A stretch of 64,000 nucleotides of DNA, taken from Synergistaceae bacterium. Lineage in GTDB: Bacteria > Synergistota > Synergistia > Synergistales > Synergistaceae. Positions 41,296 to 58,090 of the stretch are shown here, piece by piece. Made by a program: the position numbers and the translations under genes. Numbering within the stretch: the stretch's first letter is position 1; every line of letters starts with the position of its first letter. The stretch lies in the NCBI GenBank assembly GCA_050175815.1, contig JBFXIQ010000002.1, forward strand, positions 1,025 through 65,024. The letters are read 5' to 3'. The notes beneath the pieces were generated by a model. It saw only the letters and a program-made list of their open reading frames with translations. It was not told the origin of the DNA and did no database searches.

Positions 41296-41296
41296 G

Positions 41297-41658: not shown

Positions 41659-41670
41659 TTGGTATGCCAA
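41659..41670. promoter_or_regulatory. candidate GntR operator TTGGTATGCCAA (site 1)
   Basis: Pseudo-palindrome 42 nt upstream of the regulator start. Its reverse complement recurs at 42586-42597. Confidence 0.45.
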
Positions 41671-41711
41671 TGGTGTAAAATTATGCAACATGCTGTAGGG
41701 AGGTAATAATA

Positions 41712-42392
41712 GTGGAAGATAAACCGTTATCACTTCAAGTCTATGAGGCGATAAAAAAAGATATAGTTTCTTTAAAATATCCTCCGGGTTCATATCTAAG
41801 GGAGAGAGAATTGGCAGAAAGTCTTGGCGTTAGCAGGACCCCTGTGAGAGAGGCCATACAAAGGCTTTCTCAGGAATTATGGATAATTTCCGGTGATGGT
41901 AAAAAGATGCAGGTAAGGCCGGTGACTGCGGCAGACGTTCGTGAGATAATCCAGATACGAAATATCATAGAATTTTCAGCTATTGACTGGCTAGTCACAG
42001 AAGGAGAGCCCCGGGTCGTTGCCGGGCAGCTTGATTCGATTCTTAATGAGATGAAAAAGACCACAGAGCAGTATGTCTTCACAAACTTGGACCTAAGTTC
42101 TCACAGTCTGATAATTAAAAGTATGCAAAATGAAAGGCTGATAAGGTTCTGGGCCACGATCCAGGAGGAAGTTGTCAGGATGGGCCTAATGGCACTAAGG
42201 GGTGAGTATAGGTTTAAGGAAGTAATACAGGAGCACGAAATTCTAGTAAATGCCCTATGGAAAAAGGATCCTGAGGAAGTCAGGGCAGCAATGAAAAATC
42301 ACCTTGAAAAAAGTTTTGCTTCGCTTCTTGCACATCTTGACATCCCAGAAGGGTTAGATAATAGCAAACCTGGCAGCTATACAGGCAAATAA
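41712..42392 (+). CDS. GntR-family (FadR/FCD subfamily) transcriptional regulator
   Basis: N-terminal wHTH (YPPGSYLRERELAESLGVSRTPVREAIQRL) plus a helical FCD-type C-terminal domain. GTG start after GGGAGG. Confidence 0.9.
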   Translation: MEDKPLSLQVYEAIKKDIVSLKYPPGSYLRERELAESLGVSRTPVREAIQRLSQELWIISGDGKKMQVRPVTAADVREIIQIRNIIEFSAIDWLVTEGEPRVVAGQLDSILNEMKKTTEQYVFTNLDLSSHSLIIKSMQNERLIRFWATIQEEVVRMGLMALRGEYRFKEVIQEHEILVNALWKKDPEEVRAAMKNHLEKSFASLLAHLDIPEGLDNSKPGSYTGK

Positions 42393-42498
42393 GCTTTCAA
42401 AATTTCTATGCGTGATATTATTCGCATGCTACCGTCCATAACAAAGTATTTTTAAATAAAATAACAAAATATTTTGTTTTTTAAGAAATTCCATATTT

Positions 42499-42546
42499 TT
42501 AGGCAATGAGAAAACTTATTAAGATTTCTCGTTGCCTAATTTTTTT
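42499..42546 (+). terminator. strong intrinsic terminator after the GntR gene
   Basis: TTAGGCAATGAGAAA pairs with TTTCTCGTTGCCTAA (15 bp, one G-U) and is followed by 7 T. Confidence 0.9.
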
Positions 42547-42557
42547 GTGAATACCAC

Positions 42558-42586
42558 TTGACAACTATATATCCAATTGAGATAAT
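42558..42586 (+). promoter_or_regulatory. near-consensus sigma70 promoter of the island
   Basis: TTGACA (42558-42563), 17-nt spacer, GATAAT (42581-42586). Confidence 0.65.
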
Positions 42587-42597
42587 TGGCATACCAA
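42586..42597. promoter_or_regulatory. candidate GntR operator TTGGCATACCAA (site 2), overlapping the -10/+1 region
   Basis: Exact reverse complement of site 1. A further TGGCATA half-site lies at 42625-42631. Confidence 0.45.
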
Positions 42598-42686
42598 ATA
42601 GAAAGTTGGATGTCATACTTGTTATGGCATAATGATAAGTAAGTGTTTTTACATATTATGATCAAATTTTAGATGGGGAGAGTGCA

Positions 42687-43394
42687 GTGCCGATGAAGTT
42701 TTGTGTAAAAGAAAAAGACGGCAGTGAAAAAAATATCGATTTTATTCCGGTCCATATAATCAACGCCGGTTATACAGGGAGAGACCAGGCTGCGGTTCAG
42801 GCCCATATAGACGAACTCAAGGAGGAGGGAATTCCTGCTCCTGATAAAACGCCTGTGTACTTTACAAAATTTGAAGAGAGGATCACCCAGGAAAACTCTT
42901 TTGAAGTTTTGGACGAAACAGACCATTCAGGCGAAGCGGAGTTTGCTCTGTTGTTTGACAACGGAGAAGTTTATGTCGGTACCGGCAGCGACCATACAGA
43001 CAGAAAACTTGAAACAGTTGATATCCCAAAAGCCAAACAGGTATACCCGAATACTATCAGCAGAGATCTCTGGAAGCTTTCTGATGTTGTTGACCATTGG
43101 GATGACATAATACTCCGCAGCTGGATCAAGGTCGACGGAGTAAGAACACTCTTTCAGGAAGCAGCGCTCACTGCTATGCTTGATGCCAACGATATCATTG
43201 ATCGCATAAAAAAACTTCTTGTTGATCCGGAAGATACTCAGGGTCTTGTGGTTTATTCCGGAACTGTGGCTTCGATCATTAAATCAGAATACAGCCCATA
43301 CTTTGAAGTGGAGCTTGAAGATCCGGTACTTGGACGAAAACTTCGTAATTATTATGAGCTGAAGCCAAAGTCATCGTGGTACAAAGGGGACTAA
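42687..43394 (+). CDS. DUF2848-like protein
   Basis: The pattern INAGYTGRDQAAVQAHIDEL...GIPAPDKTPVYF...GEAEFALL...VGTGSDHTDR.LE fits my recollection of the DUF2848 family. GTG 42687 or ATG 42693 follows GGGGAG. Confidence 0.55.
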   Translation: MPMKFCVKEKDGSEKNIDFIPVHIINAGYTGRDQAAVQAHIDELKEEGIPAPDKTPVYFTKFEERITQENSFEVLDETDHSGEAEFALLFDNGEVYVGTGSDHTDRKLETVDIPKAKQVYPNTISRDLWKLSDVVDHWDDIILRSWIKVDGVRTLFQEAALTAMLDANDIIDRIKKLLVDPEDTQGLVVYSGTVASIIKSEYSPYFEVELEDPVLGRKLRNYYELKPKSSWYKGD

Positions 43395-43471
43395 GTAAAG
43401 CATTATTTTTAATAGCAACATGAGGCAGTTTTACTATATTGATTCTAAAAATTCAAGGAGGCTTTACAGTA

Positions 43472-43873
43472 ATGGCAAAACAGGAATATGAAATTTGTGA
43501 TGTTGATCTTTACGGAGAATGGCGTCTGGTAGAGGGTGGCTACAATGGGACTATGGAAAAGGTTCTTTCATATGATCCCGAGACCGGAAACTACACAAGG
43601 CTTCTGAAGTTTCCCCCCCAGACTAAAGTCCCGGATCTTCTTTCTCATGACTTCTGTGAGGAAGTCTACATCCTTGAAGGATTCCTCAAAGACGAGAAGA
43701 AAGATATAACGATGAAGGCAGGGTATTATGGATGCCGTTTGCCGGAAATGAAGCATGGACCCTATGATATCCCTCTCGGATGTGTAACTATGGAGATCCG
43801 CTACCAGGACCCTTCAAAGCCCATCGACCCTGAGTGCACGCTTTTGAAGAATAAGCTGGGAGCTCCCAGATAG
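43472..43873 (+). CDS. small cupin-fold protein (ChrR-like cupin)
   Basis: 133 aa with a beta-rich cupin-like pattern (EEVYILEG.L.D......AGYY..R.P...HGP). ATG 43472 follows AAGGAGG. Confidence 0.5.
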   Translation: MAKQEYEICDVDLYGEWRLVEGGYNGTMEKVLSYDPETGNYTRLLKFPPQTKVPDLLSHDFCEEVYILEGFLKDEKKDITMKAGYYGCRLPEMKHGPYDIPLGCVTMEIRYQDPSKPIDPECTLLKNKLGAPR

Positions 43874-43880
43874 ACAAACA

Positions 43881-43926
43881 AAAGTAGGAGAACGGCAGGC
43901 TGAAAGCCCGTCTTCTCCTACTTTTT
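43881..43926 (+). terminator. strong hairpin/terminator after the cupin gene
   Basis: AAAGTAGGAGAA pairs with TTCTCCTACTTT (12 bp, with an inner GGC/GCC extension) and is followed by TT. Confidence 0.8.
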
Positions 43927-43949
43927 AAATTAAACCGGAGGTAAAAATA

Positions 43950-45170
43950 ATGAAGCCAAATCTTGCCGTAGAGTACTGCGGAGTTAAATTTAAAAATCCC
44001 ATGATTATCGCATCTGCTTCTCCGAGTAAAAACGGTGAATACATGAAGCGCAGTGCAGATTCGGGAGCAGGCGGAGTCATCGCAAAAACTTTCAGCCCTG
44101 AACCTCTTGCACAGAAGTACGTATCCCCCCGTTTTACAGTCCTGAATAAAAAAGGCTGGCCCCATAGTTATTCGAACTATTCCTGCGAATTTTTGGCAAC
44201 ATATAATATAGAAGAATGGATGCAGGAAATGAAGGCTGCAAAGGCTGCCTGTGACGAAAGAAATTGTACGCTGGTAGGAAGCATCTCAGGGAACTCAAAA
44301 GAGAGCTGGACAGAATTGGCAAAAAGAATGGAAGATATTGGGCTTCCCATGCTTGAGCTGAATTTTGGCTGTCCGCACCCAAAAGATCTTGGATACAAGA
44401 GCGGCCAGGAATTAGGAAACTCTCCCGAGGCGGCGGCAGAAGTAACCAGGATAGTCTGTGACAGCGTAAATATCCCTGTCTTTGTAAAACTGACAAGTGA
44501 AGCAGTTAATATCGTAGATGTTGCGGGTCTGTGTAAAGCTTCCGGAGCGGCCGGTTTTACAGTTGTCAACAGATTCTCTGCACTGGATGTAGACATAGAA
44601 ACGGGGCGCCCCCTTCTTCACGGAGGATTTGCCGGAGTGGGAGGTCCCTGGATGAGGCCTATTACGCTTAAATGGATAGCAAAAATAGCAGAGGCACACG
44701 GTATGCCTATCTCTGCAACGAACGGGATATTCAGTTGGGAAGATGTGATCAAGTGCATAATGTGCGGAGCTACCACTGTCCAGACATGTACTGCCATCAT
44801 GTATGGCCCGAAACAGTTTGGCGAGGTAAAGGTCTTCCTTGACGGAGTAGAAAAATATCTTGTTGATCGCAACATTGATGACATTAATAAACTGAGAGGC
44901 ATTACGCTTCCGCAGATCATTTCATGGGATAAGGTCGACCGCGAACATAAGGCCATCAGCAGAGTCGTAGAAGACAAGTGCATTGGATGCGGACTTTGTC
45001 CCAGCTGGTGTTTCTATGACGCTATCAAGATGGTCGAAAAAGATGGCAAGAAGAAAGCACTTATCGATCCCAATAAATGCGACGGCTGCGGACTTTGCCC
45101 TGCCCTTTGTCCCAAAGATGCGATAGTCATGGAGGGTGAAGTTCCAATATACCTTGGTGATTTTAGCTAA
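43950..45170 (+). CDS. dihydroorotate/dihydropyrimidine-dehydrogenase-family flavoprotein with C-terminal 2x[4Fe-4S] domain (PreA-like)
   Basis: DHOD-type N-terminus (CGVKFKNPMIIASASPS), LELNFGCPH, and a C-terminal CIGCGLCPSWC ... CDGCGLCPALCP; 406 aa, the same size class as E. coli PreA. Confidence 0.8.
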   Translation: MKPNLAVEYCGVKFKNPMIIASASPSKNGEYMKRSADSGAGGVIAKTFSPEPLAQKYVSPRFTVLNKKGWPHSYSNYSCEFLATYNIEEWMQEMKAAKAACDERNCTLVGSISGNSKESWTELAKRMEDIGLPMLELNFGCPHPKDLGYKSGQELGNSPEAAAEVTRIVCDSVNIPVFVKLTSEAVNIVDVAGLCKASGAAGFTVVNRFSALDVDIETGRPLLHGGFAGVGGPWMRPITLKWIAKIAEAHGMPISATNGIFSWEDVIKCIMCGATTVQTCTAIMYGPKQFGEVKVFLDGVEKYLVDRNIDDINKLRGITLPQIISWDKVDREHKAISRVVEDKCIGCGLCPSWCFYDAIKMVEKDGKKKALIDPNKCDGCGLCPALCPKDAIVMEGEVPIYLGDFS

Positions 45171-45197
45171 TATAAAATAAAAAGAGATGATTTTAAA

Positions 45198-45983
45198 GTG
45201 ATTGGTTCAGAGAAGGTTGCGGTTGTACGCGGCGGCGGAGATTTAGCCACGGGGATAATTTATAGGCTTTGGAGGACAGGTTTTAGAGTTTTGTGTCTTG
45301 AAATCCAGAAGCCGCTTGTTGTTCGCAGGACAGTTTCAGCTGCATCCGCAATTTTTGATGGAAGCATAACTGTTGACGGTATGTTAGTGCAGCACATTAA
45401 TGCTCCGGACGAAATGTTTTTAAATGAAGGAGTTTCAATCATCGTTGACCCAGATGCCCTTTCATTAGAGATGATAAAACCTTTTTTACTGGTAGATTCG
45501 ATCATGGCAAAAAGAAATCTTGGTACGCATATGAAAATGGCTCCTTTGGTGATCGGTATTGGCCCCGGTTTTGTTGCAAAAGAAGATGTCCATTACGTAG
45601 TTGAAACAAAAAGGGGCCATTATCTAGGCAGATTAATTTCAGAAGGTTCAGCTATTCCTGACACGGGTGTCCCCGGTATACAAATGGGTTACTCAATTGA
45701 AAGATTATTAAGAGCTCCTTGTGAAGGGTATATAGAGCACATAAAAGAGATTGGTGATCATGTTGAGACCGGAGATCTTATTGGGAAGATAGGCAGCGAA
45801 GAAATTCGTGCAGCAATACCGGGAGTCCTCAGGGGTTTTATTCATCCTTCAGTGTATGTAAAAAAAGGGATGAAGATTGGCGATGTTGATCCAAGAGATG
45901 CAAAAGAGCATTGTTATTCTATTACAGATAAAGCATTAGCAATTGCTGGTGGTGTATTAGAGGCTGTTTGCAGAGAAATTTAA
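45198..45983 (+). CDS. YqeB/EF2563-family accessory protein of selenium-dependent molybdenum hydroxylases
   Basis: The N-terminal VAVVRGGGDLATGIIYRLWRTGFRVLCLEIQKPLVVRRTVSAASAIFDG matches the family signature as I remember it; 261 aa. Confidence 0.7.
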   Translation: MIGSEKVAVVRGGGDLATGIIYRLWRTGFRVLCLEIQKPLVVRRTVSAASAIFDGSITVDGMLVQHINAPDEMFLNEGVSIIVDPDALSLEMIKPFLLVDSIMAKRNLGTHMKMAPLVIGIGPGFVAKEDVHYVVETKRGHYLGRLISEGSAIPDTGVPGIQMGYSIERLLRAPCEGYIEHIKEIGDHVETGDLIGKIGSEEIRAAIPGVLRGFIHPSVYVKKGMKIGDVDPRDAKEHCYSITDKALAIAGGVLEAVCREI

Positions 45984-46004
45984 TAGAGATTAGAGGTTGA
46001 TGTA

Positions 46005-46784
46005 ATGCACATTTCATCTGTTCAGCTCGAAATTAAAGATGATAGAAACAAAGAGGAAATGATAAGCCACGTCCTTTCAATGATGGATAAGTGCAGAGGT
46101 GATGATCTTATCATTCTCCCAGAGCTGTGGAACGTCGGTTTTTTTAATTATGACAACTATAAAAACTACGCTGAATCTTCTATAGACGGAGAAACGGTCT
46201 CCGCGATTTCAGCCAAGGCCAAAGATCTGGGGGCTTATGTTTACTCCGGAAGTTTTGTCGAAAAGCAAGGAGATAAATATTACAACACAAGTGTTCTTTT
46301 TGACAGAGAAGGTAAAAATGTTGGTGAATACAGGAAGATACATCTTTTCACATATAAGTGCAGGGAACCAGAGATCCTGACTCCGGGTGAGAAGATTACC
46401 GTTGTTGATACAGAGTTTGGGAGAATTGGTCTTGCTACATGTTATGATTTGAGGTTTCCTGAACTTTTCAGAAAAATGACGGTGGAGATGGGCGCAGAAT
46501 ATTTTTTGGTGACATCAGGGTGGCCGTATCCCAGACTTGAGGCTTGGAATGTTCTCAATCAGGCGAGAGCCCTTGAAAATACTTGTTATCTTATTTCCTG
46601 TAATGCAGCTGGAGTAAACAAAGGCATCAGGCTTGCCGGCCACAGTCAGATAGTAGATCCATGGGGCAATGTCATTGCAGGTACCGGGTACGAAGAAGCT
46701 ATTGTGAAGGCTGAAATTTCGCGAGGAGAGCTTTTAAGGGTAAGAAAAGAATTCCCTGTGCTTAAAGATATACGCTTGCTTTAA
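46005..46784 (+). CDS. carbon-nitrogen hydrolase (nitrilase superfamily amidase)
   Basis: Catalytic Glu-Lys-Cys contexts are present: ILPELW, YRKIHLF, GLATCYDLRFPE; 259 aa. Confidence 0.85.
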   Translation: MHISSVQLEIKDDRNKEEMISHVLSMMDKCRGDDLIILPELWNVGFFNYDNYKNYAESSIDGETVSAISAKAKDLGAYVYSGSFVEKQGDKYYNTSVLFDREGKNVGEYRKIHLFTYKCREPEILTPGEKITVVDTEFGRIGLATCYDLRFPELFRKMTVEMGAEYFLVTSGWPYPRLEAWNVLNQARALENTCYLISCNAAGVNKGIRLAGHSQIVDPWGNVIAGTGYEEAIVKAEISRGELLRVRKEFPVLKDIRLL

Positions 46785-46835
46785 CAGTCTGCGAGTTAAT
46801 GTCATTGCGTAAGCATAGAACGGAGGAGTTTTCTG

Positions 46836-47708
46836 ATGAAAAATTTTGCATATAAGAGAGTAATAACTATTGATGAGGCTCTTGCAGTTTTAAATAACGA
46901 TAACAGCAAGTTAATAGCAGGTGGTACTGATTTGCTGTTAAAAATAAAACATGGCATGGCAGTTGTCAAAACTATGGTCGACATATCTCAGATAGAGAAT
47001 TTCTCTTACATACAAGAAGACTCAGATATGATACACATCGGCGCAGGGACAAAAATCAAAGACTTAATTGACTCTGATCTTATTCATTCTTCGGCACCAC
47101 TTATAGCTCAAATAGCACAAGAAATAGGTTCACCTGAGATAAGGAATGTGGCTACAGTTGGAGGAAATATTTGTGCTGCAAGAGCAAACTGCGGTACGTG
47201 TTTTTTGCCAGGATGCAAAGCTATGACAGGAGACAGAACAGTCAAGCCTTGTCAAAATGCTTCATATTCTGACCTGCTTTTGCCCTTTGCAGCTTATGAT
47301 GCTGTTGCAGTGATCAGAAGCTCTGATGGAACTCGTAAAGTACAAATGGAAAATTTTATTAAGCCTGACGGAAAAATAGATATTACGAACAAAGAAATAC
47401 TAACGGAAATCTTTTTCAAGCAAGAGGCATCAAAGAAAGCCTATATGTGCCTAAGATATCCAAAATCCATGGGACTACCGTATTTTTCTGTAATTGCAGA
47501 TTTTAAAGGCGGGGAAAAGTTTGATCTCACTATTGGAGGCGCAACAAAGTCAATATACAAATTTAGAGGAGTATCAAGAGAAGATGTAACAGTCTCTCTT
47601 GTAGATAAATTTGTATTTAAAGAAAGCATTTATCTATCAAAAGAATACCTTAAAACGGTAGCTCCATCTTTGATTTTAGATGCTATGGACAAGGCACTGG
47701 AGGTGTAA
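46836..47708 (+). CDS. xanthine-dehydrogenase-family FAD-binding subunit (CoxM/XdhB-like) with a Cys-rich insert
   Basis: LIAGGTDLL, ATVGGNI motifs; 290 aa. The insert is C119-x2-C122-x4-C127-x11-C139, located right after GGNIC113. Confidence 0.85.
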   Translation: MKNFAYKRVITIDEALAVLNNDNSKLIAGGTDLLLKIKHGMAVVKTMVDISQIENFSYIQEDSDMIHIGAGTKIKDLIDSDLIHSSAPLIAQIAQEIGSPEIRNVATVGGNICAARANCGTCFLPGCKAMTGDRTVKPCQNASYSDLLLPFAAYDAVAVIRSSDGTRKVQMENFIKPDGKIDITNKEILTEIFFKQEASKKAYMCLRYPKSMGLPYFSVIADFKGGEKFDLTIGGATKSIYKFRGVSREDVTVSLVDKFVFKESIYLSKEYLKTVAPSLILDAMDKALEV

Positions 47709-47713
47709 GGGCG

Positions 47714-48193
47714 ATGTCTTACGTGGTGAATATTAAAATTAACGGATATCAATTTTCTGAGGAATGCGACGAAAACACCACTTTGCTTGATTTTATTAGA
47801 GAAAGAGTAAAGCTTACAGGCACAAAAAAAGGATGTGACAACGGAGATTGTGGGGCATGTACCGTGCTGTTCGACGGGAAGGCCGTTTTGTCCTGTATGA
47901 TGCTTGCTGTGCAGGCAGACGGGCATGAGGTTTTAACTATAGAAGGTCTTACAGAAGAAAATGGACTGAATGAAATACAGAAATCATTTATTAAAGCCGG
48001 AGCAATTCAGTGTGGTTATTGTACTCCGGGAATGGTAATGGCAACGCTTGGACTTTTGTCTGAAAATCCGGATCCTACAGAAGAAGAGATCAGAAAGGCG
48101 TTAGTAGGTCATTTATGCCGCTGTAGCGGATACGAGAATATTGTTAAAGGTGTTAAGCTGGCTGCAAAAGCTTTTTCTGAGTTAAAAATCTGA
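47714..48193 (+). CDS. xanthine-dehydrogenase-family 2x[2Fe-2S] subunit
   Basis: GCDNGDCGACTV and QCGYCTPGM...LCRC.GY motifs; 159 aa. Confidence 0.95.
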   Translation: MSYVVNIKINGYQFSEECDENTTLLDFIRERVKLTGTKKGCDNGDCGACTVLFDGKAVLSCMMLAVQADGHEVLTIEGLTEENGLNEIQKSFIKAGAIQCGYCTPGMVMATLGLLSENPDPTEEEIRKALVGHLCRCSGYENIVKGVKLAAKAFSELKI

Positions 48194-48234
48194 TTGCTGT
48201 CAATAAGCTAACTCTATTTAGGAGGAACATCAAA

Positions 48235-50517: not shown

Positions 50518-50588
50518 TAAGTAATTAGTTATAAAGACAGACAACACCTTAGGTTGTCAGTAAAACACAAATTACAGGAGGAATCAAA

Positions 50589-53348
50589 ATGACTATTCAA
50601 GAAATCAAGTTTAGAGTCAACGACAGACCGGTAAAGTTGCTAACGGATCCCAATAAGTCACTCTTGAAAGTGATAAGGGATGAGTTGCGTTTGCTAGGGA
50701 CGAAAGAAGGTTGCGGGGAGGGAATTTGCGGAAGCTGTACAGTCCTTGTAGATGGGGTTCCCCAAAACTCTTGTAAAATCCCTGTACATAAGGTTGCCGG
50801 GAAGAATATTACAACAATAGAGGGTGTAGGTACTCAAAATAGTCCTGACCCTATACAGGTTGCATTTGTTAAGGCGGGAGCGTCACAATGTGGATTTTGT
50901 ACGCCAGGAATGATTTTAAACGCTAAATACATATTAGATAAGAATCCTAATCCAACTCGTGATGAAGTTCGGAAAATGCTTAAGAGAAACCTATGCCGCT
51001 GTACCGGATACGAAAAGATAATTGATGCCGTAATGATGGCTGCTGAAGCAATGAAGAACCCGGATGTACTAAAAATGAAGCCACTGAAAGATTACCGTTT
51101 AGGTGACTACATACCTCAGCTAAATTCTTGGGATAAGGTAACAGGTTCTCTGAGATACGGAATAGATATTTATATCGAGAACATGTGTTTTGCAAAAGTA
51201 CTGCGCAGCCCTCATGCACATGCCATAATAAAATCAATAGATTCTTCAGAAGCTGAAGCTATGCATGGAGTGGTCTGTGTATGTACATCGAAAGATCTTA
51301 AAGGCGAGAATCGTGTTAAGTACATTGTTCAGGATTATAGGGCTATTGCTGATAACAAGGTACGTTATTGGGGAGAGCCTGTGGCGATAGTAGTTGCGAA
51401 AACTGAAGATATTGCAGCTGAAGCACTTTCAAAAATTAAAGTTGATTACGAAGAGCTTCCTGCAGTATTTGATCCCTTTGAAGCCCAAAAACAAGGAGCA
51501 CCAGAGGTCCAGGAAGATCAGTTCCCAGGGAACCTTCTTTGGTGGCAGGATCTTAAGCAGGGTGATATAGAAAAAGGTTTTGCAGAAGCTGATATTATAG
51601 AAGAGCATGATTACTACACACCTGCTAACTGTCATGGATATCTGGATCCAGAATGTGGTGTCGGGTTTATTGACGATGATGGCAGAGTCTCTATATGGAG
51701 CTGCGGTCAGGCACCCCATTACCACAGGGATGAAGTTGCAAGAGTCCTTGGCCTTGGTACAGAAGAAGTTCGAGTTGTCGAAGACGGTACTGGTGGTGGT
51801 TTTGGAGCAAGGATCGATCCGTTTATTCAACTTTTGATAGGGATCGCAGTATACAAGGCTAAAGTGCCGGTAAAACTCCAATTCACAACGGAAGAAAACT
51901 TTATAGGAAACTGTAAGCGTCATCCTTTCTGGATGCATATGAAGACCGGCGTAAAAAAGGATGGCACTGTAGTGGCACATTATGCTGAGATTGTAACTGA
52001 TTCAGGAGCATATGCACTGGCAAGTCCTGGTGTTCTCATGAGAGCGATAGTTCACTCTTATGGTCCATATGAGTTTCCCAATGTATTGGTTCATGGTAAG
52101 ACAATCCTTACCAACAACACACCTAATTCAGCAATGCGAGGTTTCGGAGTTTCTCAAATGTGCTATTCAGTAGAAATGCAGATCAATAAAATTTGCAAAA
52201 AACTTGGAATGAGTGTGTTTGATTTTGCAAGGAAAAACGGATTTAAAAAGGGCACAATTACTGCAACAGGGCAGCTCATCGAAGATGAACCTGGTTACAA
52301 AGAAGTAATTGACAAAATTGATGAACACTGGAAAAACAAAAGTGATAAAAAGACATCCCCTGAAGAACTGGCAAAACTTCCTTCCCATATAAAAAGAGGG
52401 GTAGGATTTGCCACAACTTGGTACGGAATAGGTAAGACAGGGCTCTTAAACCTATCTAGAGCAAACATGACTTTTACGTCAGACGGAACTCTTGATTTAA
52501 GAGAAGGAGCTGCTGAGATTGGTCAGGGTTCAAATACAGTTATGGCTCTTATAGCAGCGGAAGAACTAGATCTAGACCTTGACCGTATTAAAGTTATGGC
52601 TGCAGATTCGTTGCTGACACCTGATTCAGATCTGACTTGTGCAAGCAAACATACATTCTACACAGGAAATGCGACTCTTCTGGCGGCCAAAGACCTTAAA
52701 AAGAAGATGTTTGAGGCAGCATCAAAAGAGCTAAGTGTTTCTGTTGAAGACCTTGTAACATCACAGGGGGTAGTTTTTGTAAAGTCTGAACCCGAAAACA
52801 AAATTAGTGCCCAGGAACTCGTCAGTCGAGGTTATGAAATCAGAGGAGAAGGTGAATTTGTAGTGCCTCTCGATGGACTTGACCAAGCGACGGGCCAGGG
52901 TAAGTTGTATGTTGTATTTACATATGGAGCATGTGAAGTTGAAGTTGAAGTTAATACTAAAACAGGAGAAGTAAAAGTACTTGACGCAGCGTTGGCATTC
53001 CAGGCTGGAAAGGCGATCAACAGGCTCGCAATGGAAGGTCAGATGGAAGGCGGCGTAGCCCAGGGAGTTGCTTACGCATTAACTGAAGAATTCTTGCCGA
53101 ATGGTCAAACTACTAGTTTTAAACAGTATAAGATCCCTCGTTCAACTGATGTTCCAACAATGAAAACCTATTTTGTTGAGATCCCTCAAGGCCCCGGTCC
53201 TTTTGGTGCTATCGGCATGGGTGAAGCTGCGCACTTTCCAATGGCACCTGCAATCATGGCAGCTATCAACGATGCATGCGGAATATGGATCAACACATTG
53301 CCGGCTAAACCTGAAAAGATACTAACCGCGCTGAAGGAAAAGCATTAG
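50589..53348 (+). CDS. fused 2x[2Fe-2S] + molybdopterin oxidoreductase (Mop aldehyde-oxidoreductase / XdhD-like), no FAD domain
   Basis: The N-terminal ~160 aa carries GCGEGICGSCTV and QCGFCTPGM...LCRCTGY. The rest is a Mo-binding domain (GGGFGAR, RGFG.SQ, GQGS.T, GMGEA); 919 aa. Confidence 0.9.
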   Translation: MTIQEIKFRVNDRPVKLLTDPNKSLLKVIRDELRLLGTKEGCGEGICGSCTVLVDGVPQNSCKIPVHKVAGKNITTIEGVGTQNSPDPIQVAFVKAGASQCGFCTPGMILNAKYILDKNPNPTRDEVRKMLKRNLCRCTGYEKIIDAVMMAAEAMKNPDVLKMKPLKDYRLGDYIPQLNSWDKVTGSLRYGIDIYIENMCFAKVLRSPHAHAIIKSIDSSEAEAMHGVVCVCTSKDLKGENRVKYIVQDYRAIADNKVRYWGEPVAIVVAKTEDIAAEALSKIKVDYEELPAVFDPFEAQKQGAPEVQEDQFPGNLLWWQDLKQGDIEKGFAEADIIEEHDYYTPANCHGYLDPECGVGFIDDDGRVSIWSCGQAPHYHRDEVARVLGLGTEEVRVVEDGTGGGFGARIDPFIQLLIGIAVYKAKVPVKLQFTTEENFIGNCKRHPFWMHMKTGVKKDGTVVAHYAEIVTDSGAYALASPGVLMRAIVHSYGPYEFPNVLVHGKTILTNNTPNSAMRGFGVSQMCYSVEMQINKICKKLGMSVFDFARKNGFKKGTITATGQLIEDEPGYKEVIDKIDEHWKNKSDKKTSPEELAKLPSHIKRGVGFATTWYGIGKTGLLNLSRANMTFTSDGTLDLREGAAEIGQGSNTVMALIAAEELDLDLDRIKVMAADSLLTPDSDLTCASKHTFYTGNATLLAAKDLKKKMFEAASKELSVSVEDLVTSQGVVFVKSEPENKISAQELVSRGYEIRGEGEFVVPLDGLDQATGQGKLYVVFTYGACEVEVEVNTKTGEVKVLDAALAFQAGKAINRLAMEGQMEGGVAQGVAYALTEEFLPNGQTTSFKQYKIPRSTDVPTMKTYFVEIPQGPGPFGAIGMGEAAHFPMAPAIMAAINDACGIWINTLPAKPEKILTALKEKH

Positions 53349-53548
53349 TTTGTTTTATTCTGGCAGGAAGAAAGCTTCTGAAGTTTCACCTGACAGAAGT
53401 AGCTAAAAGCAAACTATAGGCCAATCTTTGAAATATTTCTCAGTTGAAAAAGAGGGGGTGTCACCCGAAAAACTATTTAAATTTAGTTAAGAGGCGTTAT
53501 TATTTTTGCCAATAAAAATATTGTTTAATAATGGAAGGAGTGCTTTAA

Positions 53549-54589
53549 ATGTCGATCAATAAGAAGTTTTTCGTCGTAACGCTCTTAGGGTTCTTTGTTT
53601 TTACATGCATGTTCTGTGGAAGTATGACTTTTGTCGGTAAAGCATCAGCAAAAACCTACACCATGAAACTTGGAACGATTGAGCCCCCGGCAAGCCCTAA
53701 GATGGTTGGAATGGAAAGATTTAAGGAGCTTGTAGAGAAAAAAACAAAAGGAGGAATCCAGGTAAAGATCTTCCCGTCATCACAGCTGGGATCTGCCAGA
53801 GAAATGATTGAAGCTACACAGATGGGGACTGAAGAAGCCACGCTTACAACGAGCTCAAATCTTTCTGGTTTTGAACCATCCGTAAGTATTCTTGACCTTC
53901 CATTCTTATTCCCATCTAGAGATGCATGCTACAAGGTAATTGACAGCCCGTTCGGCAAACATCTGCTAAAGACTTTGGAAGATAATGGTCTTATTGGGTT
54001 GAGCTGGTGGGATAGTGGATTTAAGCAGTTCACAATGGATTCCGAGATAGCAGGTCTTTCCTCTTTCAAAGGGAAAAAAATCAGAGTTATGGAAAACCCC
54101 ATTCTAATAGCTCAGTATGAGGCAATGGGAGCTTCAGCCATCCCCCTAAATTACCATGAACTATACAATGCTCTGCAACAGGGGGTTGTAAATGGGCAGG
54201 AAAATCCGCTTGCTTCCATTTATGAAATGAAGTTTTATGAAGTACAGAAATGTCTGGCAATTTCTGACCATGCATATCTGCCTTTGGTTATGGCTGTAAA
54301 CAAAAAGTGGTATGAATCATTACCGAAGGAATATCAGACAGCACTCCAGGAAGCTAGTGACGAAGCGTCACTTTTCCTAAGAAAACATCAGCTTGATCTT
54401 GAATTTAAAGAATTCGTTCCTCATATGGAAAAGGCTGGAATTAAAATTGTGCACATGACAGAAAAGCAAAAAGCTGAAATTGCAGATGCAATTAAAGACA
54501 AAACCAGGGCAGCTCTCATGAAAATGCTTGATAATAGAGGAAAAGAACTTCTTAAGGAACTTGACGAGACTATCGCTAAAATACACTAA
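53549..54589 (+). CDS. dctP: TRAP transporter substrate-binding protein (DctP family)
   Basis: Signal peptide plus a DctP-type pattern (FPSSQLG...E..E..Q.G, D.PFLF, WW..GF.QF, K.RV, NP.......K.YEVQK); 346 aa. Confidence 0.9.
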   Translation: MSINKKFFVVTLLGFFVFTCMFCGSMTFVGKASAKTYTMKLGTIEPPASPKMVGMERFKELVEKKTKGGIQVKIFPSSQLGSAREMIEATQMGTEEATLTTSSNLSGFEPSVSILDLPFLFPSRDACYKVIDSPFGKHLLKTLEDNGLIGLSWWDSGFKQFTMDSEIAGLSSFKGKKIRVMENPILIAQYEAMGASAIPLNYHELYNALQQGVVNGQENPLASIYEMKFYEVQKCLAISDHAYLPLVMAVNKKWYESLPKEYQTALQEASDEASLFLRKHQLDLEFKEFVPHMEKAGIKIVHMTEKQKAEIADAIKDKTRAALMKMLDNRGKELLKELDETIAKIH

Positions 54590-54598
54590 GAAATTCCG

Positions 54599-54643
54599 TT
54601 ATTATGCGGCGCCTAAGATTCATAATTTGTCGCCGCATAATAA
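54599..54643 (+). other. perfect 13-bp hairpin between dctP and dctQ
   Basis: TTATTATGCGGCG (54599-54611) pairs with CGCCGCATAATAA (54631-54643). Confidence 0.8.
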
Positions 54644-54665
54644 CACTTTTATCGAAAGTGAGTAG

Positions 54666-55226
54666 GTGATTTCAATTATTACTATCATTTCTAAATTTAA
54701 CAGAACCATCGAGAAAATGATTAAGCCGATAGTAGCGATGGCACTTTTGAGTATTACTCTTATACTTTGCTTCAATGTCATTGCTAGATATATTTTTGGA
54801 TTTTCTTTGAAATGGGCAGAAGAACTTGCCAATTATACAATAGTATACGTAACATTTTTTGGAGCTGTAGCATGCCTTCCCCTAGGGCTACATATTAGTA
54901 TGGATGCATTGGTTGAAAAAGTAAGCGAAAATACAAAATGGTATCTAAGTAAAGCGAATTCAATGATTGGATTTTTTTTCTCGTTAGCATTGTCATATTA
55001 TGGTTTTCAATTGGTATCCTTTGTTATGGAAAGAGGCCAATTAAGTCCGGCAATGATGATACCTATGGTAATACCTTATATTGCTATCCCATCAGCCTCA
55101 ATGCTCCTTGCAATTGAATTCTTAGAGATATTACTTAAGAGGAAAAACGATGTATCAGAGAAGCCATCAGAAATAGACGTTGAACTTCAACATTTTTGTG
55201 ACGTAAAAGAAGAGGAGGTCCTTTAA
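54666..55226 (+). CDS. dctQ: TRAP transporter small permease (DctQ)
   Basis: Four TM segments and the ..V.ARY.FG.S..WAEE motif; 186 aa. Confidence 0.85.
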   Translation: MISIITIISKFNRTIEKMIKPIVAMALLSITLILCFNVIARYIFGFSLKWAEELANYTIVYVTFFGAVACLPLGLHISMDALVEKVSENTKWYLSKANSMIGFFFSLALSYYGFQLVSFVMERGQLSPAMMIPMVIPYIAIPSASMLLAIEFLEILLKRKNDVSEKPSEIDVELQHFCDVKEEEVL

Positions 55227-55228
55227 CA

Positions 55229-56503
55229 ATGCTTGGCATGCTTTTAGGTTTGCTAATCCTCTTTTTTGCAATGGGCACCCCGATTTACATCGCGCTTTCA
55301 TTGCCTTCATTTGTGAATATTATCGCAAGTGGTTATGATGGCATGGTGATGATCCAACGTTTTTTTGGCGGCATAGATCGTTTTTCTTTGATGGCAATAC
55401 CCTTTTTCATCCTTGCTGCTGACGTTATGGGACGAGGTGGAATGTCAAAGCGTATTATTAATCTAGCGGAGGTATTTCTTGGTCGTTTCTATGGTGGAAC
55501 GGCAACCGCCACAGTTGTAGCATGTCTGGTTTTCGGAGCTCTGTCAGGGTCGTCTCCGGCTACAGTTTGTGCTATTGGTGGAATTACTTATCCGATGCTA
55601 CTGAAAAATGGATATCCAAAGCACTTTGCTGCAGGGACAGTTTGTTCAGCCTCCTCTTTGGCTATAGTAATTCCTCCAAGTATTACTATGATAGTATTTG
55701 CCTCAACAGCAGGATGTTCAGTGGGAGATCTATTTATCGCAGGAATAATCCCCGGCATTATCATGGGATTAATATTTATTGCATATTGCTATTATTTTGC
55801 AAGAAAGCACAACATCAGATCAGAAAAGAACTATTCTGCAAAAGACAAAGTTAAGGCCTTGACTGAATGTATATGGGCCCTCGGGGTTCCAATTATTATT
55901 CTTGGCGGTATTTATGGAGGGGTATTCACACCTACAGAAGCGTCTACTGTTGCAGCGGTCTATGCGATTTTAGTGTCGATGTTTATATATAAAGAAATGT
56001 CATTAAAAGAGCTTTACCTAACCTGTCTGAAATCAGCCCTGACAACAGCACAAGTAATGATATTAGTTTCAGCTGCAAGCACCCTTTCATGGGTTTTGAC
56101 AGTGAACCAGGTGCAAGAGATTTTTTTAAATTTCATAAGTGCATTCCTTTCTTATCCTTGGATAGTTCTTTTGATAATGAATATAATCCTAGTTCTTGCG
56201 GGAATGTTCATGGATGCGGTGCCGTTCGTACTTTTGCTTACGCCTCTGTTCATGCCAATTTTCCTGCAGATGGGCTACAGCCCTATTCATCTAGGAATGC
56301 TTATGACAGTATCAGGCGCTCTAGGGATGTACAGCCCGCCTTTTGGCCTGAATATTTTTGTAGGGATGGGCGTATTTAAAGAATCGTTTTCCACGATTGC
56401 AAGGGCGGTTGTCCCCTTTGTCTTTTTGGGGATCATCTCAATGTTGTTGATTACTTATATTCCTCAATTATCTCTTTGGTTGCCTGCGTTGATGAGAGGT
56501 TAA
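55229..56503 (+). CDS. dctM: TRAP transporter large permease (DctM)
   Basis: 424-aa polytopic protein with DctM-type strings (L.AIPFFILA...M..GG.S.R.I, GA.SGSS.AT). Confidence 0.9.
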   Translation: MLGMLLGLLILFFAMGTPIYIALSLPSFVNIIASGYDGMVMIQRFFGGIDRFSLMAIPFFILAADVMGRGGMSKRIINLAEVFLGRFYGGTATATVVACLVFGALSGSSPATVCAIGGITYPMLLKNGYPKHFAAGTVCSASSLAIVIPPSITMIVFASTAGCSVGDLFIAGIIPGIIMGLIFIAYCYYFARKHNIRSEKNYSAKDKVKALTECIWALGVPIIILGGIYGGVFTPTEASTVAAVYAILVSMFIYKEMSLKELYLTCLKSALTTAQVMILVSAASTLSWVLTVNQVQEIFLNFISAFLSYPWIVLLIMNIILVLAGMFMDAVPFVLLLTPLFMPIFLQMGYSPIHLGMLMTVSGALGMYSPPFGLNIFVGMGVFKESFSTIARAVVPFVFLGIISMLLITYIPQLSLWLPALMRG

Positions 56504-56540
56504 TTTATTTGCTTGAGTTAACCAACTTATGTCAAAGTTG

Positions 56541-56577
56541 AAATCTGCTAAGACAAAAGGTCTGTAGATTTTTCTTT
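56541..56577 (+). terminator. possible terminator after dctM
   Basis: Imperfect hairpin AAATCTGCTAAGAC...GTCTGTAGATTT followed by TTTCTTT. Confidence 0.4.
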
Positions 56578-56700
56578 GAAGACGAAAATCAAAATTAAAT
56601 TATTAGCTTTGTGTAAATCAAGCACCCAAAGATTTATTATGCAAGAGTTTATTTGTTTTTTGATATGAATTATTGAATATATTTGCAATTCTTTCTGGAG

Positions 56701-56751
56701 GCGTCAAATATCTTGACCTAGGTAACATCTAGGAACCTAGATATTTGACGC
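56701..56751. promoter_or_regulatory. perfect 13-bp inverted repeat GCGTCAAATATCT / AGATATTTGACGC with nested CCTAGG-type palindromes
   Basis: Read directly from the sequence, 47 nt upstream of the MFS ORF. No U-tract follows, so an operator is more likely than a terminator. Confidence 0.6.
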
Positions 56752-56797
56752 TTAATGTACAAAGAATTAAACGTAATAATATGATAATATGTCTTGA

Positions 56798-58090
56798 TTG
56801 ATTAAAGAAAAAATCGCACTGAAGATTGAGTTGGTTCTATTGGTGAGTGGGAATGAAAAATTTGATAGAATACTTTGTTTCAAAATATTTATCCCCTTTG
56901 GCTTGGCATATTTTTTATCGGTATTGTTGGGAAGCGCTAACTCAATAATGTCTCCGATCCTGATTGAAACATTTGCCTTGTCTCCGACCGATCTTGGGTT
57001 TATGTCCTCAGTATATCTTGCTGCATTTGGAATAGCACAGTTCCCCGTTGGAGTATTGCTTGATCTATACGGTGGACGTGAAACACTGATTCCATTGCTC
57101 ATTCTTGCTGTGATAGGCACTCTTATATTTGCTGGTGCAGAATCATATGCAATGCTTGTTATATCAAAAATATTTCTGGGTATAGGAATGGCAGGATGCC
57201 TTATGGCCGCGTTTAAAACCTTTTCACAATGGATGCCAGCAAAAAAGCTTCCTTTATTATATAGTTTCCAGAGCCTTACCGGCGGGATTGGAGGCATGTT
57301 TGCAACAAGGCCGCTCGCTTATGCTTTTGAAATAATTGAATGGCGATATATATTCATATTCCTTGCTATTTTAACGTTTGTCACTTTGGTACTTCTCTAT
57401 CTTCTTGTTCCCAAAAGCAATTTGAATATTAAACGCACATCGAATACTGAAATAATCAAGTCGTTTAGAGCGATGTTGAGTTTTTGTATAGAAAGCCGTT
57501 TCTGGATGGTAGCACCAGTTATAATCACATCTCAGGCAGTAATGTTTTCTTATCTTTATCTATGGGTGGGACCTTGGATGCGTGATGTGGCAAAATTTGA
57601 TGAAATTGCTGTCGGGATGTATATGTTATATGCCTTTACAGGAGCAGCGCTCGGTTATTTTCTTAACGGTATTATCGCGGACTTATCGATAAAGACAAAG
57701 ATGTTTTCTATGGAAAAATTATATTTGATTTTTGGGGCTGGACTTACGATTTTCTTGGGAATTATAATGACCAAGAATGATAGCTCTGCCTCCTTTTTTT
57801 GGGTACTTGTTATGTTTTTTGCAAATATGACGATGATTGCTTTCCCCATCATGCAGAAGTTTTACGCGAGCAGTGAAGTGGGCAGGGCACTCTCCCTTCT
57901 AAATTTCACGATTTTCCTCATGTCATTCATATTCCAATGGTTCATTGGCGTAGTTCTTGACTTTTACCCTGTTGTTGATGGACGCTTCTCAGCAGAGGGC
58001 TATCAGACAAGTCTTGCTGTTATTGTTGTTCTAAATATGGCTGCAGTTACCCACCTGTACTTTGAACTTAGAAAACGCCGTATAATATAA
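56798..58090 (+). CDS. MFS transporter
   Basis: 12-TM pattern. The TTG start at 56798 is uncertain; GTG 56845 is an alternative. Confidence 0.75.
   Translation: MIKEKIALKIELVLLVSGNEKFDRILCFKIFIPFGLAYFLSVLLGSANSIMSPILIETFALSPTDLGFMSSVYLAAFGIAQFPVGVLLDLYGGRETLIPLLILAVIGTLIFAGAESYAMLVISKIFLGIGMAGCLMAAFKTFSQWMPAKKLPLLYSFQSLTGGIGGMFATRPLAYAFEIIEWRYIFIFLAILTFVTLVLLYLLVPKSNLNIKRTSNTEIIKSFRAMLSFCIESRFWMVAPVIITSQAVMFSYLYLWVGPWMRDVAKFDEIAVGMYMLYAFTGAALGYFLNGIIADLSIKTKMFSMEKLYLIFGAGLTIFLGIIMTKNDSSASFFWVLVMFFANMTMIAFPIMQKFYASSEVGRALSLLNFTIFLMSFIFQWFIGVVLDFYPVVDGRFSAEGYQTSLAVIVVLNMAAVTHLYFELRKRRII

Follow-up and report, generated by a model that had tools for sequence, protein, structure and literature searches.

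A molybdenum-hydroxylase gene island of a Synergistaceae bacterium that probably encodes an uncharacterised anaerobic pathway for an N-heterocyclic carboxylate

The present analysis concerns an island of 16 genes, which form an uninterrupted plus-strand run from position 41712 to 58090 in a 64,000-nucleotide stretch of DNA (contig JBFXIQ010000002.1; hereafter the window) from a Synergistaceae bacterium. The island very probably encodes an uncharacterised anaerobic pathway for an N-heterocyclic carboxylate, which would proceed through hydroxylation, reduction and hydrolysis. We infer the substrate, all of the reactions and their order; a pyridine monocarboxylate, with picolinate favoured, is a tentative but quite possible choice of substrate. 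The enzyme families involved are known and their combination is undescribed in the literature searched, in which no published account of this gene combination or pathway was found. To our knowledge, one anaerobic pyridine-carboxylate pathway has been worked out at the gene level, namely the nicotinate fermentation of Eubacterium barkeri. The cluster discussed here has a different enzyme set and is present in several phyla, in organisms from digesters, sediments, soda lakes and guts.

The enzymes and transporters of the island, the family assignments of which are all backed by Pfam and NCBIfam profile searches, are the following.

42693..43394, plus strand: DUF2848 protein with a predicted FAH-superfamily fold (Pfam PF11010, 202.7 bits)
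43472..43873, plus strand: Cupin_7 protein with a conserved metal-type site (Pfam PF12973)
43950..45170, plus strand: DHOD/DPD-family FMN enzyme fused to a 2x[4Fe-4S] domain, PreA-like (Pfam DHO_dh, 107.8 bits, and Fer4 families)
45198..45983, plus strand: YqeB, marker or accessory protein of selenium-dependent molybdenum hydroxylases (TIGR03309, 330.7 bits against a cut-off of 220)
46005..46784, plus strand: nitrilase-superfamily amidase, Nit2/omega-amidase-like (CN_hydrolase, 183.4 bits)
46836..47708, plus strand: FAD subunit of a three-subunit molybdenum enzyme (FAD_binding_5, 138 bits)
47714..48193, plus strand: small subunit with 2x[2Fe-2S] (Fer2_2, 106.5 bits, and Fer2)
48235..50517, plus strand: molybdopterin large subunit, MoL (Ald_Xan_dh_C, MoCoBD_1, MoCoBD_2)
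50589..53348, plus strand: fused 2x[2Fe-2S] and molybdenum enzyme of 919 aa, without a FAD domain, NDH-like (Pfam Ald_Xan_dh_C, MoCoBD_1, MoCoBD_2)
53549..56503, plus strand: DctP-DctQ-DctM TRAP importer (Pfam and NCBIfam)
56798..58090, plus strand: MFS transporter (MFS_1, 118.4 bits)

An earlier note on this DNA had described a contiguous same-strand gene set, and both its coordinates for the 16 genes and its family calls, including that of YqeB above the curated cut-off, were upheld. Its statement that no characterised pathway of this composition is known agrees with the profile searches, in which YqeB is the sole island protein to exceed an equivalog-level NCBIfam cut-off, the other equivalog matches falling below theirs, and in which no curated NCBIfam model names DUF2848 or the cupin. 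The genes for PreT, cyclic amidohydrolase, Hnr, enamidase and B12-dependent mutase and those of the ygeW type, which it had reported as missing, are indeed absent from the island, where neither a PreT/GltD-like gene nor an amidohydrolase gene was detected with Pfam and NCBIfam.

Searches with tblastn, together with the examination of gene context, identified a core consisting of DUF2848, the cupin, the PreA-like reductase, the nitrilase-family amidase and an XDH-family molybdenum enzyme, which is found again, its partners unchanged, in at least four lineages of phylum rank. The core was found in the Syntrophomonadaceae (the sediment loci L004 and L005; L017, with the layout of L005; and Syntrophomonas curvata, L022), in Acetohalobium arabaticum of the Halanaerobiales and a related locus (L009 and L013), in Desulfobacula (L006) and in the Synergistota (L001-L003, L014, L015 and L016), some of these with differing molybdenum-enzyme or transport content. 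The core proteins are about 37% to about 85% identical to those of the window, and the closest loci, which belong to metagenome-assembled genomes of the Synergistota/Synergistaceae, have 94-98% protein identity in the shared genes. Almost all of the clusters examined include a nitrilase-family amidase, and the majority also a DHOD/DPD-type reductase. In A. arabaticum DSM 5501 the cluster occupies roughly 495-516 kb of CP002105. Since A. arabaticum and S. curvata are cultured, the cluster is directly testable.

The expectation of the earlier note that the island is one conserved unit was borne out for this core across phyla and not for YqeB, the 919-aa enzyme and the TRAP and MFS genes, which lie in replaceable cassettes. 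The DNA of the three closest relatives is colinear with the window exactly up to the stop codon of the reductase (45169/45183) and then only at the amidase (46004-46769), and in L001 colinearity is found once more at the MFS gene (56888). Between these anchors, L001 has a different TRAP system and no molybdenum enzyme, L002 has an FeS-Mo-FAD enzyme and BenE, and the window has YqeB, the FAD-FeS-Mo enzyme, the 919-aa enzyme and DctPQM; in L003 the YqeB gene is placed as in the window, and the contig stops at this point. This pattern suggests that the lower pathway is constant and that the hydroxylase and uptake modules are swapped. A recombinational exchange of modules is suggested by L003, in which YqeB is 72% and the adjacent reductase 97% identical to the window protein. 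The cassettes differ between window 45170-46004 and 46770-56888, L001 12484-15425 and L002 12489-17770, with breakpoints exactly at gene ends, and the flanks of the close relatives have about 80-90% DNA identity to the window. Two further variants extend the range of this replacement. Locus L016 (12538-20663) is without the XDH-family enzyme; its TRAP genes are interspersed with those for two AOR-family (AFOR_N/AFOR_C) enzymes, for a small ferredoxin and for FdhD. A minimal version, L018 (10001-20549), comprises DUF2848, the cupin and the amidase with a PTS_EIIC_2-like membrane protein, and beside this triad lie a LysR gene, a ferredoxin, a conserved 2-oxoacid:ferredoxin oxidoreductase (OFOR), an SSF symporter, a phosphate butyryltransferase and a butyrate kinase. 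The gene content of L018 implies that the triad can work without the reductase and the hydroxylase.

Genes attached to the cluster in other lineages provide further clues to its chemistry. A four-subunit OFOR lies in or beside the cluster in three lineages (L005, L009, L013, L017 and L018), with 50-78% identity among its copies. Its alpha subunit passes the generic 2-oxoacid model, and the closest OFOR equivalog models, those of 2-oxoglutarate enzymes, remain below cut-off. In L005 and L017 it is accompanied by a thiolase, a 3-hydroxyacyl-CoA dehydrogenase, an acyl-CoA dehydrogenase and an enoyl-CoA hydratase, in L009 and L013 by a PTA/PTB-family phosphotransacylase and in L018 by the butyryltransferase and kinase mentioned above. 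The operons of L005, L006 and L017 begin or end with the gene for a non-pyrrolysine MttB methyltransferase (47% identity between Firmicutes and Desulfobacterota), which in L005 and L017 occurs with a BCCT betaine-type transporter. MttB and BCCT would feed in an N-methyl betaine, either homarine (N-methylpicolinate) or trigonelline, and this link suggests that these major marine metabolites may be consumed without O2. Aerobic catabolism of homarine (homABCDER) did not enter the literature until 2026 (PMC13236597). This route and the aerobic one for trigonelline (TgnAB) act on the very betaines that the MttB/BCCT versions of the cluster may use, but in them the ring is opened while still methylated, by flavin-dependent oxygenases, and none of their enzyme families is shared with the cluster (PMC13236597), in which demethylation would come first and O2 would not be needed.

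The FAH fold of DUF2848, the Nit2-like nature of the amidase and the OFOR and MttB/BCCT links are additions to the earlier note, and in combination they point to a 2-oxo-acid amide as an intermediate. As a Nit2-like enzyme is found in nearly every cluster examined, the nitrogen would have to leave as an amide, which in turn calls for a carbonyl group next to the nitrogen, the product expected of a molybdenum hydroxylase. Three features, namely OFOR, the FAH fold and the kind of substrate on which the Nit2 branch acts, indicate that the carbon skeleton passes through 2-oxo-acid chemistry. A ring with its carboxyl group next to the nitrogen meets both requirements and hence a picolinate-type substrate is suggested.

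The proposed route would begin with entry of the acid through the TRAP transporter, the MFS transporter or both. A molybdenum hydroxylase would then add a water-derived hydroxyl group beside the ring nitrogen to give a pyridone (lactam), picolinate being converted to 6-hydroxypicolinate; of the two hydroxylases available in the window, one would be a member of the pathway-wide clade and the other an extra NDH-like fused enzyme, which would probably need YqeB and a labile selenium ligand. The PreA-like FMN/2x[4Fe-4S] enzyme would reduce a ring C=C bond with low-potential electrons to give 6-oxo-tetrahydropicolinate. The cupin and the FAH-fold DUF2848 protein would open or rearrange the enamide ring at the non-lactam C-N bond by hydration, yielding 2-oxoadipamate, from which the Nit2-like amidase would free NH3 and leave a 2-oxo-dicarboxylate (2-oxoadipate in the case of picolinate). 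The overall sum would be picolinate + 3 H2O and redox-neutral, because the reductase would re-use the electrons from hydroxylation. In other lineages, OFOR would convert the product to glutaryl-CoA, to be followed by the beta-oxidation genes of L005 and L017 or by a butyrate branch. The order of hydroxylation, ring reduction and C-N hydrolysis that had been proposed for the island still fits best.

The assignment of DUF2848 depends on structure prediction, since a comparison with PDB sequences gave no match and the fold search alone was informative. In Foldseek, its AF2 model (pLDDT 93) matched Cg1458 oxaloacetate decarboxylase (E 1e-9, TM 0.63), KdaD dehydratase, FAH, 4-oxalocrotonate decarboxylase (NahK) and HpcG hydratase, the FAH-fold matches ranging in E from 1e-9 to 1e-4 and in TM from 0.56 to 0.65, and PF01557 (FAA_hydrolase) co-matches in some distant DUF2848 homologues. 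Residues H40, E83, E85, D102, D105, K117 and S191-G-T are invariant. On the predicted model DUF2848 is an FAH-fold protein with an acidic triad of the metal type, which would bind a metal. In the FAH-superfamily relatives matched, a divalent metal holds the substrate, which is a 2-oxo or enol acid, and by analogy DUF2848 is proposed to handle a 2-oxo- or enol-acid intermediate by hydration, tautomerisation or decarboxylation. It resembles the FAH enzymes of meta-cleavage routes (4-oxalocrotonate decarboxylase, 2-oxopent-4-enoate hydratase) in its fold and acidic triad and differs from them in falling below the curated family cut-offs, with merely 14-18% identity to solved FAH-fold proteins.

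A DUF2848 subfamily about 36% identical to the window protein is present in aerobic Actinobacteria and Proteobacteria, where the same gene cluster encodes, next to it or at a distance of a few genes, a flavoprotein of the OYE/2,4-dienoyl-CoA-reductase type. This aerobic operon (L008 7497-10696, L019 8001-16428 and L020 4880-16741) has an Opp-type ABC transporter, the OYE-like flavoprotein and CMD or MmgE/PrpD proteins, and it looks like a second uncharacterised pathway based on the same pair of a reductase and an FAH-fold protein. The aerobic contexts yielded this recurrent ene-reductase partner and no known pathway. As DUF2848 keeps company with an ene-reductase in aerobes also, the pairing seems to be intrinsic to the family.

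The cupin lies in the same cluster as DUF2848, mostly adjacent to it, in every anaerobe cluster with that region in view. Residues H70, D71, E74, E75, H106, C115 and E119 are invariant in 11 orthologues, and the retention of the first five in all of them fits a metal enzyme. By analogy, a ring-opening hydrolase or isomerase is proposed. The pathway would offer candidate functions for DUF2848 and this Cupin_7 group, which have no known role, and also for a PreA-like reductase that lacks PreT.

The reductase had been described as a PreA/DHOD-family flavoprotein with 2x[4Fe-4S], and this description is supported by its DHO_dh domain and two CxxCxxCxxxC motifs (at residues 344 and 377), along with the catalytic Cys C141 in an NFGCP motif. 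Its best PDB match is the FMN domain of DPD (141 bits), with class 1B DHOD also near, and the PreA model NF006183 gave 260.8 bits, under the cut-off of 335. On these similarities it is proposed to be a ferredoxin-linked reductase of a ring C=C bond. Reductive pyrimidine catabolism offers a parallel, in that a DPD/DHOD-family reductase is followed there by ring opening and a nitrilase-superfamily hydrolase. The island differs from it in having a PreA below cut-off, no PreT, no dihydropyrimidinase and an amidase nearer to Nit2 than to ureidopropionases, and in carrying molybdenum hydroxylases and carboxylate transporters.

In the amidase, the intact E-K-C context noticed previously corresponds to E40, K111 and C146, in PELW, RKIHLF and CYDLRF motifs. 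Its best PDB matches are mouse Nit2 (2w1v, 126 bits) and yeast Nit3 (1f89). Known substrates of the Nit2/Nit3/YafV branch are amides of 2-oxo-dicarboxylates, and the enzyme is accordingly proposed, on its similarity to this branch, to release NH3 from a 2-oxo-dicarboxylate monoamide. It resembles the omega-amidases in its triad and closest structures, but its NCBIfam scores are below cut-off (PRK10438, YafV, 102.6 against 249; deaminated-glutathione amidase of the Nit1 type, 134.7 against 355). We know of no earlier placement of either the omega-amidase or the FAH family in an anaerobic N-heterocycle route.

The molybdenum enzymes of the different loci fall into four groups in an identity matrix of the large subunits: the 919-aa type (72-87%), the NDH-like split enzymes of L011 and L021, MoL with its L015 counterpart, and the widespread core enzyme. 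MoL shares 72% identity with the L015 subunit and 39-44% with the core enzymes found at six other loci; as the latter value equals the identity between two subgroups of the core, MoL is plausibly the local equivalent of the pathway-wide enzyme. The catalytic Glu motifs are GLGE720 in MoL and GMGE879 in the 919-aa enzyme. The best PDB match of MoL is 4-HBCR alpha (395 bits), to which the core enzymes of other loci are likewise closest. The FAD subunit, with NdhF (3hrd_C) as its best PDB match, has a Cys-rich insertion of 26 aa (C113, C119, C122, C127 and C139), which is common to L015 only and aligns with the Cys-rich insert of 5y6q_B, the medium subunit of a Methylobacillus aldehyde oxidase. 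This position is the [4Fe-4S] site of PaoB-type and 4-HBCR beta subunits, and by alignment the insertion is probably an extra [4Fe-4S] site.

These similarities allow a reading in which no heterocycle is involved and the molybdenum enzymes are 4-HBCR-like dehydroxylases or aldehyde oxidoreductases acting on aromatic or aliphatic acids, or in which the genes are unrelated neighbours. The affinity of MoL and the core enzymes to 4-HBCR alpha, the insertion in the FAD subunit and the annotation of BenE as a benzoate transporter family are in its favour. All three 4-HBCR models are, however, below cut-off (TIGR03194 585 against 995 and TIGR03195 92 against 405, both far under it, and TIGR03193 177 against 258), no CoA ligase or transferase is present in any cluster, the island included, and a C-N hydrolase nearly everywhere with a DHOD/DPD-type reductase in most clusters argues for a nitrogen ring. 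The conservation of gene order across phyla rules out unrelated neighbours. This reading is therefore considered very improbable. The sole feature of the island that is like 4-HBCR is the Cys-rich insertion, and a CoA pathway of the 4-HBCR type was rejected for lack of CoA-activating genes.

The 919-aa enzyme presents a different case. Its catalytic half is most similar to NdhL of E. barkeri (293 bits, 38.5% identity), with lower scores to 4-HBCR (195 bits) and to the Desulfovibrio aldehyde oxidoreductase MOP (184 bits), the latter being closest by whole-length score; it is fused and unsplit, unlike NDH with its L/M split. Orthologues with 72-87% identity are present in L011, L015 and L021. 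L011 and L021, unlike the window, additionally carry an NDH-like enzyme that has the L/M split (84% identical to each other), the L011 copy scoring 438 bits to NdhL in PDB. In L021, a Desulfoscipio-like locus, a DUF3870 gene and split XdhC genes (619-954) lie between the third molybdenum enzyme and the NDH-like enzyme. On this distribution YqeB/YqeC would belong, with the 919-aa enzyme and its partner TRAP/MFS genes, to an add-on module, found in L011 and L021 as well.

Such an affinity to NDH leads to the main rival of the picolinate proposal, in which the same logic is applied to nicotinate (or trigonelline, with MttB/BCCT) as an alternative to the E. barkeri fermentation. 6-Hydroxynicotinate would be formed and reduced by the PreA-like enzyme, in place of Hnr, to 6-oxo-tetrahydronicotinate; the cupin, DUF2848 and the amidase would replace enamidase and give 2-formylglutarate or, after decarboxylation, glutarate semialdehyde, and the aldehyde would be oxidised to glutarate by the 919-aa enzyme or, in L016, by the AOR enzymes. 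The NdhL and NdhF matches and the split enzymes of L011 and L021 speak for nicotinate, as do the MOP-like whole-length similarity of the 919-aa enzyme and the AOR enzymes of L016, both of which fit an aldehyde intermediate, and the beta-oxidation genes of L005 and L017, which would fit glutaryl-CoA. The selenium dependence of E. barkeri NDH also matches the YqeB link (bioRxiv 2025.04.24.650524). On the other hand, the route contains no 2-oxo acid and leaves the conserved OFOR unexplained, the 2-oxo-acid preferences of FAH-fold and Nit2-like enzymes fit it less well, the clusters have no glutarate CoA transferase or ligase, and the pathway-wide molybdenum enzyme belongs to a 4-HBCR-like rather than an NDH-like clade. 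Nicotinate is thus regarded as a rather unlikely substrate.

The E. barkeri fermentation itself is similar to the proposed pathway in that a (selenium) molybdenum hydroxylase forms a pyridone, the ring of which is then reduced by a ferredoxin-linked FeS flavoenzyme, and NH3 is released hydrolytically. It differs in its enzymes: Hnr, enamidase (no gene of the amidohydrolase fold) and the 2-methyleneglutarate/B12 mutase are missing from 41659-58090, where reduction would be carried out by a DHOD/DPD-family enzyme and ring opening and deamidation by the cupin, the FAH-fold DUF2848 and the Nit2-like amidase. Other lineages of the cluster attach OFOR, whereas the barkeri route uses none at this stage.

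YqeB connects the island with the selenium-dependent molybdenum hydroxylases. Of the components of the selenium-molybdenum trait of Haft and Self, XDH-family molybdopterin enzymes (two of them) and YqeB are present in the island. YqeB homologues stand at the same position in L003 and L015; in L009 and L013, YqeB and YqeC are adjacent to each other a few genes from the cluster, and the 919-aa enzyme is absent; in L021, YqeC is inside the cluster. Neither protein was found in the fetched part of L011, and many core-only clusters are without YqeB in the region examined. C. difficile needs YqeB for its selenium-dependent utilisation of purines (PMC11448449), and selenium dependence is established for nicotinate, xanthine, purine and 2,8-dioxopurine enzymes (bioRxiv 2025.04.24.650524), including NDH of E. 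barkeri. Since YqeB or YqeC is present in several loci with the 919-aa module (L015, L021), the likeliest client of YqeB would be the NDH-like 919-aa enzyme. Selenium dependence, as suggested by YqeB itself, by YqeB/YqeC near other clusters and by the 38.5% identity to NdhL, is plausible and somewhat favoured, and the island may add a client to the poorly understood YqeB/selenium cofactor system.

The 2,8-dioxopurine pathway (DOPDH/XdhAC, YgfK, SsnA, HyuA, YgeY, YgeW, YgeX, YqeA) is comparable in its selenium-linked XDH-family enzymes, among them one with fused FeS and molybdenum domains and no FAD (bioRxiv 2025.04.24.650524), in its flavin/FeS ring reductase followed by hydrolases, and in the presence of YqeB (PMC11448449; bioRxiv 2025.04.24.650524). 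The island differs from it in lacking the ygeW, ygeX, ygeY, ssnA, hyuA and ygfK families, in its score to TIGR03311 (620 against 830) and in its transporters, which are for carboxylates and not nucleobases.

The transporters point to an acid as substrate. The TRAP importer passed the DctP-type TRAP models TIGR00787 (256 against 175) and TIGR00786 (429 against 268). R179 and N219 of DctP are invariant, R179 being retained in 42 homologues; we take R179 to be the carboxylate-binding Arg of SiaP-type proteins. Among solved structures, the one nearest to the DctP model (pLDDT 93.8) is that of Desal_2161, a TRAP binding protein (4nn3; 39% identity, TM 0.95) that probably binds orotate, an N-heterocycle whose carboxyl group adjoins a ring nitrogen. 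A review names orotic acid as a TRAP ligand (PMC5812351). An orthologous TRAP system (60-62% identity) adjoins the 919-aa orthologues of L011 and L021, an MFS gene follows TRAP in L021, and MFS paralogues occupy the same site in L001. Across the loci the uptake proteins are of the DctP-type TRAP, BenE, MFS and BCCT kinds. Of the two substrate classes named in the earlier note, a carboxylated N-heterocycle remains probable in view of these transporters and R179, and an aromatic acid such as hydroxybenzoate has become unlikely because of the nitrilase-family amidase in nearly every cluster examined.

Other N-heterocycles could be processed by the same chemistry, such as pyrrole-2-carboxylate (through 2-oxoglutaramate to 2-oxoglutarate), orotate or another pyrimidine carboxylate, quinolinate, dipicolinate, isonicotinate, or the hydroxypyridines that Synergistes jonesii degrades, through 2,3,6-trihydroxypyridine to 2-oxoglutaramate. 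In support of this group, 2-oxoglutaramate is the classical Nit2 substrate, the closest OFOR equivalog models are for 2-oxoglutarate, though below cut-off, the operon upstream of the island turns succinyl-CoA into propionyl-CoA, the solved TRAP binding protein nearest to DctP is a probable orotate binder, the reductase belongs to the DHOD family, and L001 and L018, without a hydroxylase, suggest the entry of pre-oxidised substrates. In a review from 2025, the genes with which S. jonesii degrades dihydroxypyridines are described as not yet identified (PMC12366334). However, the MttB/BCCT linkage best fits N-methylpyridinium betaines, the beta-oxidation genes of L005 and L017 suit a C6 product more than succinyl-CoA, and Nit2, rather than the carbamoylases, is the closer relative of the amidase; dihydroxypyridines carry no carboxylate, at odds with TRAP or BenE uptake, and no S. 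jonesii homologue was seen among the named matches. A substrate from this group is likewise held to be rather unlikely. Two of its members were rejected on chemical grounds: orotate, in the form of an orotate fermentation, needs no hydroxylase, and dipicolinate via chelidamate, a chemically neat route, leaves no amide for the nearly universal amidase.

Several observations weigh against the picolinate proposal. With picolinate as the substrate, the two or three molybdenum enzymes of the window, L011, L015 and L021 are left unexplained, the two AOR-family enzymes of L016 fit an aldehyde intermediate, as in the nicotinate route, better, and nicotinate is the substrate of the characterised enzyme to which the 919-aa enzyme is most closely related. 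L001 and L018 have no molybdenum enzyme nearby and L018 has no reductase either, from which it follows that the lower pathway may accept other, already oxidised compounds. The roles given to the cupin and DUF2848 are drawn by analogy of fold. A tblastn search of the 64 kb window with YqeC, XdhC, MoaA, MoaC, MocA-like, OFOR, MttB, BCCT, BenE and AOR sequences gave no match, so that the OFOR, MttB and BCCT clues are borrowed from other genomes; SelD, YqeC, XdhC and molybdenum-cofactor synthesis genes were not found within the window by tblastn, Pfam or inspection of reading frames and motifs.

A broader form of the picolinate proposal, doubtful when taken as a whole, would combine an anaerobic picolinate route with the use of homarine, an abundant osmolyte of marine organisms, through a new MttB-family N-methylpyridinium demethylase. 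In it, DUF2848 and Cupin_7 would be new ring-opening or rearranging enzymes that yield 2-oxoadipamate and the selenium-dependent NDH-like hydroxylase would be an interchangeable entry module, and the same lower pathway might underlie the detoxification of pyridinediol by rumen Synergistota.

The regulatory features of the island are given below.

41712..42392, plus strand: GntR/FCD-family regulator, its own transcription unit (Pfam GntR 66.9 bits, FCD 66.4 bits)
42499..42547, plus strand: terminator-like hairpin with T7 after gntR (dG -21.7 kcal/mol, z -6.9)
42558..42602, plus strand: promoter-like site TTGACA-17-GATAAT, TG-extended (boxes 42558-42586; 11/12 consensus match)
43880..43930, plus strand: terminator- or attenuator-like hairpin with T5 between the cupin and PreA-like genes (hairpin 43880-43925; dG -26.3 kcal/mol, z -6.4)

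A GntR/FCD gene also heads the cluster in L015 and L016, and in L006 one adjoins the cluster on the opposite strand. Two palindromes, CCAATTGAGATAATTGG and TTGGCATACCAA, overlap the promoter-like site, and the block of promoter and palindromes is identical in L001-L003, amid diverged flanking DNA, the sole difference being one position of the second palindrome, which is G in L001 and L002; on this conservation the palindromes are a candidate GntR operator. L003 retains a hairpin after gntR, with a different sequence. The separate terminator that had been assigned to the DUF2848 and cupin genes corresponds to the strong hairpin at 43880-43925. A simple terminator scan performed no better than on shuffled sequences and missed the cupin hairpin, and both hairpins were found by reading the sequence. 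No riboswitch was detected over 41200-59900 with Rfam. Alignment of relatives moved the start codon of DUF2848 from GTG 42687 to ATG 42693 and that of the cupin from TTG 43439 to ATG 43472. In the 294-nt gap between dctM and the MFS gene, the segment 56700-56760 holds a nested palindrome of considerable length, GGCGTCAAATATCT...AGATATTTGACGC, inside which lies CCTAGGT/ACCTAG; it has no T-run and might be bound by a regulator or form an RNA structure.

The G+C content of the island is 0.38-0.44, as against 0.46-0.52 in its flanks. Directly upstream (35098-41295) lies an operon for a succinate-to-propionate route, with methylmalonyl-CoA mutase (large and B12 subunits), an epimerase and a Na+-translocating decarboxylase, which is kept as a flank in L001-L003. 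The possibility that this decarboxylase is a glutaconyl-CoA decarboxylase tied to the pathway was rejected, as it occurs with the mutase and epimerase, has higher G+C and belongs to the flank and not to a cassette. A second OAD_beta decarboxylase beta subunit is located at the start of the window (43-1167). Downstream (58223-59657) is a two-subunit Fe-S hydrolyase of the fumarase/tartrate-dehydratase type, which flanks the cluster in L001 as well; the region behind it (59909-63585) encodes a TAXI-TRAP system as well as a membrane protein of the AbrB family, and another TAXI-TRAP pair is encoded at 3125-6255. No tRNA genes were found within the window, and its remaining genes encode transporters, glycogen enzymes and thiamine salvage proteins. 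The thiamine salvage block (26501-29978 and 30351-31199) comprises a cytosine/purine-type permease, hydroxyethylthiazole kinase, thiamine-phosphate synthase and phosphomethylpyrimidine kinase, and a YuaJ-type thiamine transporter on the opposite strand belongs with these genes.

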